UHGV virus genome: UHGV-0189314
From: a virus
Strand: one strand, 5' to 3'
DNA length: 27,150 nt
Shown: one piece after another, positions 17,151-24,279 of the stretch
How positions within the stretch are numbered: the stretch's first letter is position 1
Layout of the letters: each line of letters begins with the position of its first letter
Made by a program: the position numbers and the translations under genes
Notes under the pieces: generated by a model
Database searches by the model: none
Seen by the model: only the letters and a program-made list of their open reading frames with translations
Told to the model about the DNA's origin: nothing

Positions 17151-18626
17151 ATGTCCGGACTACATGGTGTTGAAACCATTGAACTGACAACAGGTACGGT
17201 CGCCGTGCAGACCATCTCCACGGCAGTGGTTGGTCTGGTGGGGACTGCTCCGGATGCCTCTGGTGGTGTGTGTGCTTCCGGTACAGCCGGTTCGTGGCTG
17301 CTGGGAACGGCGCTGGATTTTACGGCGAAACAGGAGGGCCGGGCCGGCAATAAGATTTCGGTGGTTGCTGTCGCGGCCACAGAACAAAGCGCGCAGACCA
17401 CGGCCTCGCTGGAAGGTACAACCCTGACGATAACGCTGGGGACGGATGAGCACAGCCAGGTTAACGCCACGGTGGAGCGTGTGACTGAAGTGGTGAATGC
17501 ACTGGGTGATTCACCTGTGACGGCGGCAGTCAGTACCCTGAATGCAGGGGGCGCTGAAAATAATGTGGTGTCGCCGTTCAGCCTGACGTTATCCGGCGGG
17601 GAGGATGAGGCGTTCCCGGTCAATACACCGGTGGTGGTGGCAGGGGCCATTACTCAGGCCGGGAAACTGGGCTCAGCCGGGACATTATATCCGGCCCTGC
17701 GTGATATTTTTGACCAGACCGGTGCGCTGGTGATTGTGGTGCGTGCGGAAAGCAAAACAAAGGCGAAAGAGGCCGAACAGCGTGCGGCGGTGATTCAGGC
17801 CATGGAGGCGCTGACAGAAAGTAAGGGCGTCACGGGCTATCAACCGCGCATCCTCATTGCCACGGGGTACAGTGAGGATGATGGCGTGGCAAAGGCGCTG
17901 GAAACGTATGCCGCGAAGCTGCGGGCCGTGGCCTATATCGACTCTCCCTCAATGGCAACGCCGCAGGATGTGGTTCAAAGGCGCGCATCCTTTGGCGGGC
18001 GCGTGGAGCTGCTGCGCCCGCGCGTGTCAGTAACGGATGACAGCGGGCAGACGGTATTTCGTCCATATTCGGCTCGTGCTGCCGGGCTGCGTGCCCGTAT
18101 TGATTATGAAAAAGGGTGGTGGTGGTCCAAATCAAACCAGGACGTGATGAATATCACCGGTCTGGAGCAGGTGGACACGTTTATTCTCGGGGAGCAGAAC
18201 TGCACAGCAAACCTGCTGAACATGGAAAATATCTCCACCATTATTCGCCATGACGGTTTTAAACACTGGGGTAACCGTCTGTGCACATCCCACAGTCAGT
18301 GGCGCTTTGAACCGGTACGCCGTACTGCAGATGTGATTGAGGACAGTATCCAGGAGGCCATGCTGCCTTATGTCGATCGCCCGCTGGATCGTGATGTGGC
18401 GGACGACATTCTTGGCAGTATTAATGCCTATATGCGTCAGCTTAAAAATCTGGGCGCGATCCACGGTGGCAGTGCCTGGCTGAATGATGAACTGAACACA
18501 GCAGAAACCCTGGCCGCCGGGCAGTTGTATATCGATTATGACTTTGGGCCGAAGTCACCACTGGAGCGCCTGACACTGCGGGCGATGATTAACAATAAAC
18601 TGGCGCTGGAGGAGCTGACGGTATGA
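17151..18626 (+). CDS. FI: Contractile tail sheath protein (P2 gpFI-like) with an extra ~120-aa insertion
   Basis: N-terminus MSGLHGVETIEL..VQTISTAVVGLVGTAPDA and C-terminal LGLRARIDYEKGWWWSKSN...IIRHDGFKHWGNR...TAETLAAGQLYIDYDFGPKSPLERLTLRAMI match P2 FI. RBS GGAGAG then ATG 17151; the ORF-track start at 17103 would include the terminator. Confidence 0.95.
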   Translation: MSGLHGVETIELTTGTVAVQTISTAVVGLVGTAPDASGGVCASGTAGSWLLGTALDFTAKQEGRAGNKISVVAVAATEQSAQTTASLEGTTLTITLGTDEHSQVNATVERVTEVVNALGDSPVTAAVSTLNAGGAENNVVSPFSLTLSGGEDEAFPVNTPVVVAGAITQAGKLGSAGTLYPALRDIFDQTGALVIVVRAESKTKAKEAEQRAAVIQAMEALTESKGVTGYQPRILIATGYSEDDGVAKALETYAAKLRAVAYIDSPSMATPQDVVQRRASFGGRVELLRPRVSVTDDSGQTVFRPYSARAAGLRARIDYEKGWWWSKSNQDVMNITGLEQVDTFILGEQNCTANLLNMENISTIIRHDGFKHWGNRLCTSHSQWRFEPVRRTADVIEDSIQEAMLPYVDRPLDRDVADDILGSINAYMRQLKNLGAIHGGSAWLNDELNTAETLAAGQLYIDYDFGPKSPLERLTLRAMINNKLALEELTV

Positions 18627-19141
18627 TGACGGGTGAAAAAAAACTATTGCGCGCATGGGCGTTATTTCTTCCTGGTGGGATCCGTCTTCATGGCGCGCAC
18701 GAATATACGCCGCCAGCCATTAATATCACGACAGTGGATATCAAAACCGGTGCAATGGATGCACCGGTGGCAGTGGATGATGGTATGGAGGCGCTGACCT
18801 GCTCGTTTAAGATTTATGGCTACGATGTTGCCATGCTGACACTGCTTGGATTACAGGCGGGGCTTTATTCGCCGGAGATTGTTGTCCGCCAGGCTTACAG
18901 GGTGGGGAATGCGACCAGCGGACAGGTGGAAACCCTGCAGGGGATGATCACCAGTATCACGCCGGATGCGCGTCCGGCAACGTCACAGGCAGAGGCTTCG
19001 GTGACGGTGGAAATGTCACTGAGTTATTACCGTCAGGCTGTCGACGGTGTGGAAACCATCTGCATTATTCCGGAGGAATTTGTGCGCCGTATTAACGGCG
19101 TTAATGTTCTGTCGGATCTAAAAAAAATCATCCGGGTTTAA
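18623..19141 (+). CDS. FII: Tail tube protein (P2 gpFII-like)
   Basis: 172 aa (same size as P2 FII), directly after the sheath gene with overlapping ATGA; moderate resemblance to P2 FII. Confidence 0.8.
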   Translation: MMTGEKKLLRAWALFLPGGIRLHGAHEYTPPAINITTVDIKTGAMDAPVAVDDGMEALTCSFKIYGYDVAMLTLLGLQAGLYSPEIVVRQAYRVGNATSGQVETLQGMITSITPDARPATSQAEASVTVEMSLSYYRQAVDGVETICIIPEEFVRRINGVNVLSDLKKIIRV

Positions 19142-19160
19142 TCCGGGGATCCTGTCATTC

Positions 19161-19188
19161 AGGCGGCTCAGGCCGCCTTTTCTTTTTT
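19161..19188 (+). terminator. Intrinsic terminator (AGGCGGC-UCAG-GCCGCCU + TTTCTTTTTT) after the tube gene
   Basis: 7-bp stem, 4-nt loop, U-tract to 19188; next RBS AAAGGAG at 19189-19195. Confidence 0.55.
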
Positions 19189-19201
19189 AAAGGAGATGCT
19201 T

Positions 19202-19504
19202 ATGTCGGAAAAAAACAGTGTTCCTGCCAGCTGCGTGGAAATTGTGTTATCCGTGCCGTATGTCACCGCATCAGGGCAGACGATCACGCACATCACCATG
19301 CGTGCACCCACCGTCCGCGATCGTCTGTTGCATCGACGGAGTACCAAACCGGAAGCAGAGGCTGACCTGGATATGATTGCCGGTCTTTGCGGGATGGATG
19401 CGGCGGACATGATGAACATGGAAGCGTGTGATTACCTGGCCCTGGAGCGGCAGTTTAATGTTTTTTTGCTGCCGCCGGTCCGGCGGAAGAAGAAAGTATC
19501 CTGA
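19202..19504 (+). CDS. E: Tail assembly chaperone E (P2 gpE-like), zero-frame product
   Basis: Small acidic protein between tube and tape-measure genes; contains the slippery run T-TTT-TTG at 19462-19468. ATG 19202 preferred (RBS spacing) over 19196. Confidence 0.75.
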   Translation: MSEKNSVPASCVEIVLSVPYVTASGQTITHITMRAPTVRDRLLHRRSTKPEAEADLDMIAGLCGMDAADMMNMEACDYLALERQFNVFLLPPVRRKKKVS

Positions 19505-19641
19505 TGGCGATACGGCGTGCCGGTGCCTGGTTCGGGTGGTCTCCCGGAGATGTGATGGCGCTGCCGTATACGGATTTTGTGTCAATGATGCTGGCGGAGT
19601 CGGAAGAGAGGAAGCGACGTTATGGCAACGGTTGGCGATAA
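19202..19641 (+). CDS. E+E' fusion made by programmed -1 ribosomal frameshift (slip at 19462-19468)
   Basis: After a -1 slip at T_TTT_TTG the -1 frame stays open from 19468 to TAA 19639-19641 (…AIRRAGAWFGWSPGDVMALPYTDFVSMMLAESEERKRRYGNGWR), overlapping the tape-measure start. Same arrangement as P2 E/E' and lambda G/GT. Confidence 0.6.
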
Positions 19642-21274
19642 CCTTAAAGCGAATATCAGGATCGGCGGCACGATAGATCCGTCGTGGAAAAAATCGGTAG
19701 ATGGACTGAAGCACGGATTATCAGGGGCAACGCAGGAAGTGGCCCGCCTGACACGCCAGCAGGACGTACTGAAACGAAAAATTCAGGCTGGCGTACTGGC
19801 TGGACAGGATATTACTGAACTGCGAAAGCAGTATGAAAAGCTGGGCAAAAAAATTCATGATGCTACCGGAGAGCAGGACAAATTTAACCGTAAGCTGGCT
19901 CGTGCTGAACGTCTGGAACGCTGGAAAGGGCGGGCCGGGACCGTTCTTAAAACCGGGCTGGGGCTTTCTGTTGGTTCGGGGTTGACGCTGGCAGCGGGCA
20001 CTACCGCTGTGCTTAACCGGAATACGGAAACGGCAGAGCGGGCAGGGATAGCCCGCAGTTACGGGGTGGATTATGAAACCTATGCGGCATGGGATTCACT
20101 TGCCCGACTGATGGGGCTGAACGGTGAAAACATCGGTGATCTGTTTGAGGAGTACCGGAACAAGGTTTTTGACGATGATAATGGTGCCACGGACAAAGGA
20201 GCCATTCAGGAGGTATTCGGTAAACTGGGGCTGAAAGCGGGCGTAATGGCCGGAAAAAGCAACCAGGAGCAGGTCGAATTTTTATTTGATCGCTTACTGC
20301 AGGTGGAGAATGAACAGGTGGCAGCCGGGATGGCAGATGCGCTGTTTGGTGGTGAGGCCAATAAAATTCTGACCTGGATGCGTCTGTCAGGAAAAACTTA
20401 CCGGGAGCTTATCAGTGAGCAGAAACGCTATAACCTGGTGACAAAGGCAGGGGCAGATGGCGCAGTTCAGGGGCATATGGCGCTGTCAAATCTCAGTAAT
20501 GTTCTGAGTTCGTCCATTGATGAAATCAGCGGGCAACTGGGTAAGGAGCTGGCACCACATATTCAACAGGTGACGGATGACCTTGCGGCCTGGTTTAAGT
20601 ATGGTGGACTGGAAAAAATCCGGGCATTTATCCGTGATGATGCCCTGCCGGCGCTGATCGACATGGCAGCATGGATGTGGAAATTCGGAAAGGTTCTGGC
20701 TGGAATCACACAAAAAGCCATTGAGTGGGGGTTAGCGGATGATCCACGAGAGGACCGGCGAGAGGTGCTGGAATATCTGGCAAAAATGGGGGCGCCGGAG
20801 CTGGCGAGAGCGGTGGCGCAGAAAAACGGTCAGGGAGAATGGTTTGATGAACTGCTCAGGCAAAATCCGGACCTGACGAAACAGGTTGTACAGGCTTATA
20901 AAGACACCCGCGGTTATCTCCCCTGGAATCATGACGATAAAAAGTTTGATGCATTTCTCGACCCTTTGCTGGGGCCGAAAGAAGAACCTGATTTTAAGGC
21001 GATAAAAGAGAAATCCCGCACCTACATTGATGGACTTCATGCAGCAGATTCGGGGCAGGGTAATTCGGATCCCCTCTCAGCTCTTCAGTATACACCCGGC
21101 AGTATCAGCCAGGTGGAAGTAAAACCCACGTATCAGATACGGGCGGAATTCAACATCACCCAGAAGCCAGGCGAGGATGCCGGACAACTGGCAGACAGGG
21201 TGACGAAAAATCTGGGTGATATTCATTTTGGTCAGCGTTCCCGTATGACTGATGGTTATGAATCCTGGGGGTGA
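19622..21274 (+). CDS. T: Tail tape-measure protein (P2 gpT position; 550 aa)
   Basis: Large, predicted alpha-helical protein directly after E/E' and before U; call is mainly positional. Confidence 0.7.
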   Translation: MATVGDNLKANIRIGGTIDPSWKKSVDGLKHGLSGATQEVARLTRQQDVLKRKIQAGVLAGQDITELRKQYEKLGKKIHDATGEQDKFNRKLARAERLERWKGRAGTVLKTGLGLSVGSGLTLAAGTTAVLNRNTETAERAGIARSYGVDYETYAAWDSLARLMGLNGENIGDLFEEYRNKVFDDDNGATDKGAIQEVFGKLGLKAGVMAGKSNQEQVEFLFDRLLQVENEQVAAGMADALFGGEANKILTWMRLSGKTYRELISEQKRYNLVTKAGADGAVQGHMALSNLSNVLSSSIDEISGQLGKELAPHIQQVTDDLAAWFKYGGLEKIRAFIRDDALPALIDMAAWMWKFGKVLAGITQKAIEWGLADDPREDRREVLEYLAKMGAPELARAVAQKNGQGEWFDELLRQNPDLTKQVVQAYKDTRGYLPWNHDDKKFDAFLDPLLGPKEEPDFKAIKEKSRTYIDGLHAADSGQGNSDPLSALQYTPGSISQVEVKPTYQIRAEFNITQKPGEDAGQLADRVTKNLGDIHFGQRSRMTDGYESWG

Positions 21275-21276
21275 AG

Positions 21277-21765
21277 ATGGTGGATTTACTGGGCTGGGGC
21301 GTAAACCGGCTTGAGCGCGAAGCATGGGACGCAGTGGGCTCATTAACGGAGGTGGCTTCCCGCGTCATGCTGTCGTTTGGTGAGTTTGAATTCAGTATCG
21401 ATACGGCAGCGTATAACGCCATGAAGCGCACCATGGAATGGCGGTGGGATGAACAGCAGCTTATCGGAAAAAACGACCTGCTGCAGTATACCGGCAAGGG
21501 AGCCAGAACAATAACCCTTGAAGGTATGGCGCATGCAGGATTTCGTGACGGTGTGGGAATGGATGCCCTTGATACACTGGTTCAGATGGTGGATGACAAT
21601 CCGGCTCCGTACCTTCTGGTCTCGAGCACAGGCGATGTGATGGGGTATTTTGTTGCAACCGCCTATTCAGATAACACCACGTCCTTTCTTCCCGGCGGTG
21701 CGCCGAAGAATAAAACGTTCACACTGGAGCTGAAATACTATGGTGAAAAACTGGCGGACCACTGA
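21277..21765 (+). CDS. U: Tail protein U (P2 gpU-like)
   Basis: SFLPGGAPKNKTFTLELKYY resembles the gpU family C-terminus. ATG 21277 after GGGGG; alternative GTG at 21271. Confidence 0.8.
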   Translation: MVDLLGWGVNRLEREAWDAVGSLTEVASRVMLSFGEFEFSIDTAAYNAMKRTMEWRWDEQQLIGKNDLLQYTGKGARTITLEGMAHAGFRDGVGMDALDTLVQMVDDNPAPYLLVSSTGDVMGYFVATAYSDNTTSFLPGGAPKNKTFTLELKYYGEKLADH

Positions 21766-21958: not shown

Positions 21959-23037
21959 ATGAATATCTGCCTGATTTCAGCCTGACAGCAGAGGGGGAGG
22001 ATATCACGAAGGCCATAAAGCGGGGGCTGGCTGAAGTGCGTTATACCGATAATGGTGCTGCCACAAAGCGCTCCGATGAACTGATGATAACCCTGTTCAG
22101 TGAGAAGATGGCGCTGCCACCAAAAGGCGCGGTGTTAACGCTGGGACTGGGATTCAACGGAAACCTGGTAAATAAAGGCAGCTTTACCGTCTGCCAGGTG
22201 GCAAGTGGTGGGCCTCCCCGTTGGATCACCATTTATGCCACAGCCGCCCCCATGAATGCGTCCAGGCATGGTGCAGATGTGACTGCACTGAAAACCCGCG
22301 TGTTCAGCGATATTACGCTGGGTGAACTGGTGAAAACGATCGCCACTGAAAATAATCTGGTGGCGCAGGTCTCACCGGCGCTGGCGGAAATCCGTATTCC
22401 GTGGGTGATGCAGTCATCTGAATCGGATGCGTCCCTGCTTTCCCGGCTTGCAGGGATGTACGGTGCCACCAGTAAACCGACGAACGGTTACTGGTTATTC
22501 CTGGAGTATGGCGCATCGCAGAGTACATGCGGCAGGGATGCCCCTGTAATGACCATCACGCCGGACATGGTGTCAGACTGGGATTACCGGGAGGGGGAGC
22601 GGCAGGGCGCATCCGGAGGTGGAAAAGGAACAACAAAAAAAGGGAAAGTGGGTGTCAGATATTTTGACCCTCGCGACGGGAGAACGCGCGAATTTAAAGT
22701 GGATGTGGAGTCCACAGACAAGCGACATCCATTCACTCAGCCGGATCAGGGCACAGCAAAACACTGCGCAGACTCTAAGGTTAAACGTGTGCAGAAAGCC
22801 GGACGCCAGATGACGATAACGTTGCCCTGCAGGCCCGCATTGTTGAAAGCGGGTGCAGAGATGCGTTTTATCACGCAGGGTTTTGGGGGACGCGAGGATC
22901 ATAACTGGCAGGCTGAGTCGGTGGAGTTTTCACTGGCACCGGGGCAGGGATTTACGCTGAATCTGTCGCTGACCACGGATATTTCTGCAAAGGGGAAAGC
23001 CAGTGGCAAGAAAAAAGGCGTCAATTATTTTGGTTAA
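21949..23037 (+). CDS. D: Tail protein D (P2 gpD-like, baseplate hub / late tail gene)
   Basis: Size and several blocks match P2 D (LPDFSLTAEGEDITKAI, PPKGAVLTLGLGF..LVNKGSFTV, TLGELV); terminal gene of the U-X-D trio. Confidence 0.85.
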   Translation: MGLNEYLPDFSLTAEGEDITKAIKRGLAEVRYTDNGAATKRSDELMITLFSEKMALPPKGAVLTLGLGFNGNLVNKGSFTVCQVASGGPPRWITIYATAAPMNASRHGADVTALKTRVFSDITLGELVKTIATENNLVAQVSPALAEIRIPWVMQSSESDASLLSRLAGMYGATSKPTNGYWLFLEYGASQSTCGRDAPVMTITPDMVSDWDYREGERQGASGGGKGTTKKGKVGVRYFDPRDGRTREFKVDVESTDKRHPFTQPDQGTAKHCADSKVKRVQKAGRQMTITLPCRPALLKAGAEMRFITQGFGGREDHNWQAESVEFSLAPGQGFTLNLSLTTDISAKGKASGKKKGVNYFG

Positions 23038-23061: not shown

Positions 23062-24279
23062 ATGTCTGTATTAATTTCGGGTGTGCTGACGGATGGTGCG
23101 GGACTCCCCATGTCCGGATACCATATTATTCTGAAAGCCCGACAGAATACATCCGCAGTGGTTATGAGAACGGTGGCAACAGTGGTGACAGGGCCGGCAG
23201 GAGAATATGCATTTGAGGCTCAAACCGGAATATATGATGTTTATCTTCGTTCGTGTATTGAAAGAGAATATTGTGTCGGTGATATTTGGGTTTACGACGA
23301 TTCTAGGCCCGGTACACTGAATGATTTTCTGACCGCTCTCGATGAGGGCGACTTGAAACCGGATGTGGTGAAACGCTTCGAAGAAATGTTGGCGCAGGCG
23401 CAGCAGAGCGCGGAAGCGGCAGCGGAAAGCGAACGACAGTCCGGGCAACACGCAGCTGATGCGCAGAAGATTAAGGATGATTGCCAGATGCTGGCGGATA
23501 ACGTACAGCAGAATGCAGAAGCCGTTGCCGAAGATAAACAACGCGTTGAACATCTGGCCTCAGAAGTTGAGTTGAACGCTGGGCAGGTGCAGCAGAGTAT
23601 TACAGATGCAGTAAAGCAGGCTCAACAGGTAGCAGATGACGCTGCATCCAGTGCCGAGGAATCAAAGAACAATGCGCAGGAAGCAAAACAGTACAGGGAT
23701 GAGGCACAACAGATTATTGATAGTCTGAATGCAACAAATGCCACCACAATGGATAAAGGGCTGGTGCAACTGTGTAGTGATACGGACAACGACACCGAGG
23801 AGCTGGCTGCTACGCCAAAGGCAGTCAAAGCCGTCATGGATGAGGTTAAGGGAAAAGCGCCGCTGGACAGCCCTGCGTTCACTGGCATGCCAACCACCCC
23901 CACCCCTTCGCAGGATGCGTCCGGTTGTGAAATTGTAAATGCTGAATTTGTTCGGGCATTGATTGCTGCAACGTCATCAGGTTCGTATTCAACCGATTCA
24001 GTGGTTCCGCTGGTAATTAATGGTGCACAACTCCAGTCCGCTCATCAGAGCAGTGGACCACTGGTGATAAACAAGGTGCAATTTCAGCACGTCCGTCAGA
24101 CCAGAACCAATGCCCCCCTGGTGGTCAACAAAGCACTGATCCAGTCCGCTCATCAGAGCAGTGGACCACTGGTGATTAACAAGGCGCAACTTCAGCACGG
24201 TCGTCAGGCCAGAACCAACGGCCCCCTGGTGGTTAACCGTATGGGGTTGAGTTTTGCATTCGTTACCCCTTTGCAATGA
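23062..24279 (+). CDS. Second tail fibre: lambda-Stf-like N-terminus, coiled-coil region, repeat-containing C-terminus
   Basis: N-terminus MSVLISGVLTDGAGLPMSGYHIILKARQNTSAVV...VYDDSRPGTLNDFL matches the lambda Stf / prophage tail-fibre N-terminal domain (MAVKISGVLKDGTGKPVQNCTIQLKA...VYEDSQPGTLNDFL). Middle GLVQLCSDTDNDTEELAATPKAVKAVMDEVKGKAPLDSPAFTGMPTTPT matches the conserved fibre motif also in P2 H. Confidence 0.8.
   Translation: MSVLISGVLTDGAGLPMSGYHIILKARQNTSAVVMRTVATVVTGPAGEYAFEAQTGIYDVYLRSCIEREYCVGDIWVYDDSRPGTLNDFLTALDEGDLKPDVVKRFEEMLAQAQQSAEAAAESERQSGQHAADAQKIKDDCQMLADNVQQNAEAVAEDKQRVEHLASEVELNAGQVQQSITDAVKQAQQVADDAASSAEESKNNAQEAKQYRDEAQQIIDSLNATNATTMDKGLVQLCSDTDNDTEELAATPKAVKAVMDEVKGKAPLDSPAFTGMPTTPTPSQDASGCEIVNAEFVRALIAATSSGSYSTDSVVPLVINGAQLQSAHQSSGPLVINKVQFQHVRQTRTNAPLVVNKALIQSAHQSSGPLVINKAQLQHGRQARTNGPLVVNRMGLSFAFVTPLQ
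24007..24240 (+). repeat. Near-identical tandem coding repeat (2 x 108 bp plus a partial third) at the C-terminus of the Stf-like fibre
   Basis: Copies at 24007-24114 and 24115-24222 differ at only a few positions; each encodes PLV[I/V]N-x-(A/V)Q-x-Q-SAHQSSG / PLVIN-K-x-Q-x-QH-x-RQ-x-RTN. Also generates the antisense artefact ORF 23998-24276. Confidence 0.75.

Follow-up and report, generated by a model that had tools for sequence, protein, structure and literature searches.

Does the 3' end of gene E in this prophage give rise to one protein or to two? The window considered here, the whole stretch of 27,150 nucleotides of viral DNA that was analysed, had received a preliminary description made from its letters, in which the heptamer T_TTT_TTG close to the end of E was proposed as a programmed −1 frameshift site that joins E to an overlapping frame, E', in an E+E' tail chaperone fusion. 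That proposal is supported by the register of the heptamer, the order of the surrounding genes, the PF10109 domain of E, the conservation of the site and the selection that acts on the −1 frame. Since, in addition to these features, E' has no conserved start of its own, we consider it very probable, on the basis of sequence comparison, that the locus encodes an E/E+E' tail chaperone pair of the P2 type, expressed by programmed −1 ribosomal frameshifting.

Gene order and anatomy of the slip site

The window is an exact match to the chromosome of E. coli strain Sx181-0-1, in which the prophage adjoins prfC and combines a lambda-like head module with a P2-like contractile tail module. On the plus strand, which carries all the features of the slip-site region described below, the tail genes are arranged in the order sheath, tube, E, the −1 ORF and tape measure, followed by homologues of gpU, X and D. 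The tail sheath gene (PF04984/PF17482) ends at 18626, and the tail tube gene, which is similar to P2 FII and lies directly 5' of E, occupies 18623..19141 (PF04985 Phage_tube, E = 7.2e-23; labelled 'phage major tail tube protein' in RefSeq). Gene E extends over 19202..19504, from the ATG at 19202, with a GGAG ribosome-binding site 6 nt 5' of it, to the TGA at 19502-19504, and its zero-frame product is a tail assembly chaperone of 100 aa. Residues 14-89 of this protein align to positions 2-78 of the PF10109 profile (Phage_TAC_7, E = 7e-12), a Pfam family entitled 'Phage tail assembly chaperone proteins, E, or 41 or 14'; the protein also matches phrog_166, 'tail protein' (E = 7e-23), and its RefSeq entry, WP_087905713.1, is named 'phage tail assembly protein'. 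A scan of E, E' and the fusion against NCBIfam gave no hit, a search of PDB sequences with the E family profile returned a chance match alone (E = 0.58), and a megablast of 18600-21300 against the phage collection gave zero matches, the nearest annotated phages being found at the protein level only.

The tape-measure gene, 19622..21274, encodes 550 aa and overlaps the end of E' with its first 20 nt. Its assignment comes from PHROG matches: its matches to several PHROGs named 'tail length tape measure protein' have E = 1.6e-9 to 1.6e-4, the best PHROG, which matches over the full length, is phrog_3654 ('unknown function'), and a Pfam scan of the protein produced no match. Some RefSeq genomes label the homologous gene as tape measure. 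The protein is short, with 550 aa compared with 815 aa in P2 T (by record coordinates), so that a shorter tail would be predicted.

The letters at 19460-19471 read G TTTTTTT G CTG, and the heptamer T_TTT_TTG at 19462..19468 lies in the X_XXY_YYZ register of E, across the E-frame codons GTT TTT TTG. Its distance from the E stop is 12 codons, as had been described: TTG, then 11 sense codons, then the stop. In the −1 frame a TAA stands at 19456..19458, two codons 5' of the heptamer, so that this frame can be entered only at or after the heptamer; from 19459 it is open to the TAA at 19639-19641. The preliminary description was right about this openness, but its count of 58 codons is off by one, the frame having 59 sense codons when counted from the heptamer's first base and 57 beyond the heptamer. 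It had also placed the end of the frame inside the start of the tape-measure gene, in agreement with the position of the TAA, which ends 20 nt into that gene, counted from the ATG at 19622. The E' segment, delimited by translation and by the homologous −1 peptides of 106 relatives, consists of 57 post-slip codons and the stop (19468..19641), and the predicted fusion, join(19202..19468, 19468..19641), would be an E+E' protein of 146 aa. The further statement that this product has no ATG of its own and escapes the list of open reading frames was correct in that the fusion is absent from the list, but an ATG does exist at 19504, where it overlaps the stop of E as TGATG. The 45-aa ORF that begins there (19504..19641; RefSeq WP_157902008.1) is listed, and it displays the C-terminal three quarters of E'.

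Between the stop of the tube gene and the ribosome-binding site of E lies a terminator-like hairpin, AGGCGGC-TCAG-GCCGCCT followed by TTTTCTTTTTT (19161..19188), detected in a terminator scan. It belongs to the context of the locus and is outside the frameshift signal. A hairpin with a T-run is found at the same position in nearly all enterobacterial relatives (loci L003, L004 and most of L006-L118), with stems that differ widely, such as AGGCGGC/GCCGCCT, ACGGCC/GGCCGT, GGCACC/GGTGCC and CCCCG/CGGGG, and P2 has a hairpin in its tube-E spacer without a U-tract. In appearance the element is a conserved intrinsic terminator, or else an attenuator, and it would lower the expression of E, tape measure, U and D relative to sheath and tube.

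Elsewhere in the window, positions 7-81 encode tRNA-Gly(TCC), which, taken with the region upstream (626-935 of locus L001), is the last member of a cluster of four tRNAs (Ile, Arg, Thr, Gly) located downstream of the prophage antiterminator Q gene. A 108-bp tandem repeat (24032-24237; 1.9 copies, 90% matches), which encodes repeated ...SAHQSSGPLVINKAQLQH... units, lies within a tail-fibre-like ORF (23062-24279) that RefSeq calls an incomplete pseudogene.

Conservation of the site and selection on the −1 frame

For comparison, 118 related loci were gathered from four annotated phages, 33 bacterial genomes, 80 IMG/VR contigs and P2. Of these, 106 are enterobacterial relatives, 33 close and 73 distant, with E proteins 35-98% identical to that of the window. 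Homologues lacking both the heptamer and the open −1 frame, which the preliminary description had named as evidence against a fusion, did not appear among them: in 106 of 106, an in-register T_TTT is accompanied by an open −1 frame of 52-61 codons that opens at this site and ends 35-49 codons beyond the stop of E. Sixty-six loci have T_TTT_TTG at this site, every one of the 33 close relatives among them; T_TTT_ATG is found in 36 loci and T_TTT_TTA in four.

The codon 5' of TTT varies among GTT, GCT, GAT, AAT and CGT, which encode Val, Ala, Asp, Asn and Arg, and yet always ends in T. With the fractions of T-ending codons in the usage of this prophage, the product for these residues is 0.0035, and the first base of the heptamer, judging from the codons compared, is under selection. 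Where the slip site contains a Leu codon, this is TTG or TTA only (8% and 9% of the Leu codons of the prophage) and never CTG (63%).

The −1 frame is closed just 5' of the heptamer in many lineages, and the E' peptides of the relatives align from the first post-slip residue, upstream of the E stop; position 10 is almost always Glu, and position 35 is Pro throughout. Within the stretch that encodes E' alone (19505-19621), a codon-position test on 22 distinct close sequences counted 7, 8 and 25 variable sites at positions 1, 2 and 3 of the −1-frame codons (chi-square p = 4.6e-4), and in these sequences the −1 frame is free of stops, whereas the other two contain 71 and 10. Taken together, the conservation and the codon-position pattern indicate translation of the −1 frame and purifying selection on it.

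T_TTT_ATG replaces T_TTT_TTG in L003 (2755-2761), in L004 and in 34 other loci. About a third of the relatives carry this form, among them Hafnia phage yong2, Citrobacter phage Chris1 and many prophages of Citrobacter, Rouxiella, Pantoea and Erwinia; one such locus has four T only (CGT TTT ATG). As read from its letters, T_TTT_ATG is a tetramer-type U_UU.U site, at which tRNA-Phe alone would be able to re-pair and tandem re-pairing would be impossible. No second slip candidate was found in these loci between the opening of the −1 frame and the stop of E, and a search of them for a conserved downstream structure found none. In reporter assays in E. coli, U_UU.U tetramers were at background without a stimulator (PMC4066793).

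Proposed mechanism, flanking elements and rival explanations

In the mechanism that we infer, the slippage is ribosomal. Most ribosomes translating E would stop at the TGA at 19502 and release the 100-aa chaperone, and a minority would slip by −1 on U_UUU_UUG with tRNA-Phe (UUU) in the P site and tRNA-Leu (UUG) in the A site, after which both tRNAs would re-pair with UUU UUU. Reading of the −1 frame for 57 further codons, to 19641, would then yield the 146-aa E+E', the first 89 residues of which are common with E and in which the predicted junction is ...QFNVFL/AAAGPAEEE... (the slash marks the junction). Tandem slippage on the heptamer would produce the tryptic junction peptide QFNVFLAAAGPAEEESILMAIR; a slip of tRNA-Phe only, on U_UUU, or an extra U in the mRNA, would produce the FF variant QFNVFFAAAGPAEEESILMAIR. 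U_UU.U_UU.G is outside the most efficient heptamers in E. coli reporter assays (PMC4066793). As for the two products, we take their presumed roles from the G/GT model of lambda (Levin et al. 1993; Xu, Hendrix & Duda 2004, 2013, 2014, as summarised in PMC5009743), by which the part common to both products would bind the tape measure, and the tube or tail protein would be the partner of the extension. By analogy with lambda G/GT and with P2 E/E+E', the tape-measure protein, encoded directly downstream, would be coated by the E portion that both products share, and recruitment of the tube protein would fall to the rare E' tail; the E : E+E' ratio needed for tail assembly would thus be set by the frequency of slippage.

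Two elements beside the heptamer are candidate stimulators. A stem-loop or pseudoknot had been suggested within 19470-19520, and a short GC hairpin, CCGCCG-GUC-CGGCGG, is indeed present at 19472..19486, six pairs long and 3 nt past the heptamer, but it is specific to a lineage and unconserved in the family. In a 32-nt context it folds with −11.4 kcal/mol (z = −2.3), a stability reached by 7 of 200 shuffles, and extension of the context to 62 nt and 92 nt removes any advantage over shuffles (z = +0.4 and +0.75). It is kept, with changes in the loop, from the lineage of the window to a Trabulsiella relative at 56% identity, and is missing from the remaining family, below 56% identity, when the lineages are folded separately; consensus folds are weak (−13.2 and −2.3 kcal/mol), with almost no covariation. 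On the shuffles, the folds of separate lineages and the near absence of covariation, the downstream structure was rejected as a conserved element. On the 5' side, an SD-like GGAG at 19444..19447, 14 nt upstream of the heptamer, may act as a stimulator. GGAG, GAGG or AGGA ending 10-14 nt 5' of the slip site occurs in 26 of 48 distinct relatives, a count confounded with conserved Leu-Glu codons. Both the GGAG and the GC hairpin are thus candidate stimulators only.

Could the same fusion arise without a ribosomal shift? RNA polymerase might add a U on the run of seven T at 19461-19467 and so fuse the frames with an F-F junction. The length of the run speaks for such transcriptional slippage, as does the under-representation of UUUUUUU in all frames of E. 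coli genes, for which transcriptional slippage is a possible cause (PMC4066793). A database variant, P0003, has one T fewer, which shows that indels occur readily in this run, at any rate in DNA or in sequencing; in this variant, represented by 25 member sequences, E enters the +1 frame (...FNVFCCRRSGG...), the result of a homopolymer error in sequencing or else of decay of the copy. Against this, efficient slippage of the polymerase requires about 9 or more T, and the arrangement is retained in relatives with six T (GCT, GAT, AAT or CGT followed by TTT TTG), five T (GTT TTT ATG) and four T (CGT TTT ATG), runs too short for appreciable slippage of this type. What is conserved is the T_TTT in its specific register and not the length of the run, and the identical site of P2 is on record as one of translational frameshifting (GenBank; PMC3091744). 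Although transcriptional slippage could contribute to the fusion, we regard it as very improbable as the explanation of this locus.

Slightly less probable again is that E' is an independent protein of 45 aa, translated from the ATG at 19504 by termination-reinitiation at TGATG and with no frameshift at all. The overlap of this ATG with the stop codon of E and the separate CDS in RefSeq (WP_157902008.1, a hypothetical protein) would fit such a protein. The ATG, however, is present in only 10 of the 33 close relatives, the other 23 having ACG or ACA, and of the 73 distant relatives just one encodes a Met anywhere in residues 1-15 of E'. Furthermore, conservation of the −1 peptide begins at the slip site, 14 codons 5' of the ATG, and includes the Glu at position 10, and the closure of the −1 frame immediately before the heptamer in many lineages likewise argues against a start unconnected with the slip site. 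By these comparisons, the ORF at 19504-19641 is probably not an independent gene, and a −1 ribosomal frameshift is the preferred reading for E' as a whole.

How often such an arrangement occurs can be judged from a census of the 31 annotated CDS of the window (7410 codons), which contain 28 in-register heptamers; in three of these 28 the −1 frame passes the zero-frame stop, and the two overrunning heptamers other than that of E (19120 and 22989) indicate that such a layout can arise by chance. A_AAA_AAA at 19120-19126, five codons before the stop of the tube gene and with an open −1 frame of 81 codons, was rejected as a second frameshift site; relatives read CTG AAA AAA there, and the heptamer is probably a product of chance. 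A_AAA_AAC at 19210, in codons 3-5 of E, was likewise rejected, being unconserved in the protein relatives. A_AAG_GGG at 22989-22995 is in register in the gpD-like gene, whose stop follows 14 codons later; the −1 frame there, 75 codons long, enters the next gene and ends 179 nt beyond the stop. That the heptamer at 19462 is a similar, functionless coincidence is scarcely credible, as this site and its −1 frame are retained in 106 relatives down to 35% identity with a coding pattern of substitution, in contrast to the heptamer at 19120, which is specific to the window.

The matching RefSeq record has no joined CDS and gives E' as a stand-alone 'hypothetical protein' of 45 aa, and in the other 19 E. 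coli genomes at the top of the match list the feature names indicate separate CDSs for the chaperone and for a hypothetical or tape-measure protein. With E' annotated separately, the predicted 146-aa essential tail protein is absent from the proteome; once the slip site is recognised, this prophage family can be given a joined CDS. The E+E' frameshift described here is an ordinary, unannotated case of a well-known kind, and its main value is for annotation, with nothing new gained for the biology of frameshifting. A modest exception is the T_TTT_ATG variant of the sister lineages, which offers a convenient natural comparison. It is conceivable, if rather doubtful, that the frameshift signal itself has turned over within the family, with the heptamer, GGAG and hairpin in one lineage and T_TTT_ATG in others. 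If both forms are functional, they would constitute a natural series on how much frameshifting a tail chaperone needs, and also a test of tetramer sites that have no stimulator.

Comparison with known frameshift systems

Like the −1 frameshift signal of E. coli dnaX, the site combines a slippery heptamer with an SD-like element on its 5' side, here GGAG at a distance of 14 nt, and with a hairpin on its 3' side, here a GC hairpin; it differs in that neither flanking element is conserved across the family and in that the hairpin lies only 3 nt past the heptamer. The products differ as well, the shifted one being longer than the zero-frame product in the case of E+E', whereas in dnaX it is shorter. 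The P2 heptamer, the GGAG and the hairpin could together make up a dnaX-like signal of three parts, tuned for a higher E+E' ratio.

The tail chaperone of phage Mu is described in PMC5009743 as using a −2 frameshift (Xu 2004 and Baranov 2006, cited therein). E-like proteins of Mu-like loci belong to PF10109 as well, with E = 5.5e-21 and 6.2e-21 for PhiKM and Pseudomonas loci, but in these relatives the extension is in the +1 frame, whereas in the window it is in the −1 frame and follows a classical heptamer; an extension of the Mu type in the +1 frame was not found in the window. In Escherichia phage PhiKM (locus L002, 2700-2888), the long overlapping ORF of the +1 frame has an E'-like translation. 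In the Pseudomonas loci L030-L038, for which length alone was noted, the +1 ORF extends 37 codons past the stop in nine of nine. Such +1-frame extensions are in keeping with the −2 shift reported for Mu (PMC5009743).

With lambda, the locus shares one start, two products and a −1 shift near the end of a gene that is situated between the major tail protein and the tape measure. The protein family is a different one, and the tail of lambda is non-contractile; the lambda heptamer is G_GGA_AAG. Membership in the gpG family of lambda was not found in a Pfam scan of E and the fusion, which gave PF10109 alone, and the resemblance, being an analogy, is one of arrangement and presumed mechanism only. 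The efficiency of frameshifting is 2-3 fold higher in P2-type phages than in lambda (PMC5009743).

The closest parallels are those with P2. Its GenBank record, NC_001895, annotates E, a joined E+E' CDS and a 'site of −1 translational frameshift', and a P2-type site is conserved in the P2-like phages of Burkholderia (PMC3091744). According to the account in PMC3091744 (citing Christie 2002, J Bacteriol 184:6522, and Xu 2004), P2 shifts by −1 at TTTTTTG and makes an E of 91 aa and an E+E' of 142 aa, sizes close to the 100 and 146 aa of the products here. The heptamer T_TTT_TTG is identical in both, in P2 with the codons GGT TTT TTG (2679-2685 of the P2 locus, L119), as are the direction of the shift and the order sheath, tube, E, E', tape measure, U, (X) and D, and in both E' ends a few nucleotides inside the tape-measure gene. 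P2 E belongs to PF10109 too (E = 1.4e-12, residues 7-85, profile positions 2-78), and the slip codon falls at the last residues of that domain in both proteins, residue 89 here and residue 85 in P2.

Other features set the two apart. Pairwise similarity to P2 E+E' is not significant (BLASTP E = 0.95), E is in PHROG 166 here and P2 E in PHROG 103, the distance from slip site to stop is 12 codons in this prophage as opposed to 7 in P2, E' reaches 20 nt into the tape-measure gene as against 8 nt into gene T of P2, and the head module of this prophage is lambda-like and not that of P2. A short GC hairpin follows the site here, whereas the statements on P2 in PMC3091744, citing Xu et al. 2004, report no stimulatory hairpin for that phage. 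A comparison of E' with PF06528 (Phage_P2_GpE) and with PHROGs yielded nothing at standard thresholds. One of 20 members of the E' family has a sub-threshold match to PF06528 (E = 0.056), and one member matches PHROG 6416, that of P2 E', at a borderline E = 0.018. An hhalign comparison of E' and P2 E' aligned the equivalent 30 residues with E = 5.7e-4, at a probability of only 30%. As judged from the sequences compared, the membership of this E/E+E' pair in the P2-type functional class is well supported.
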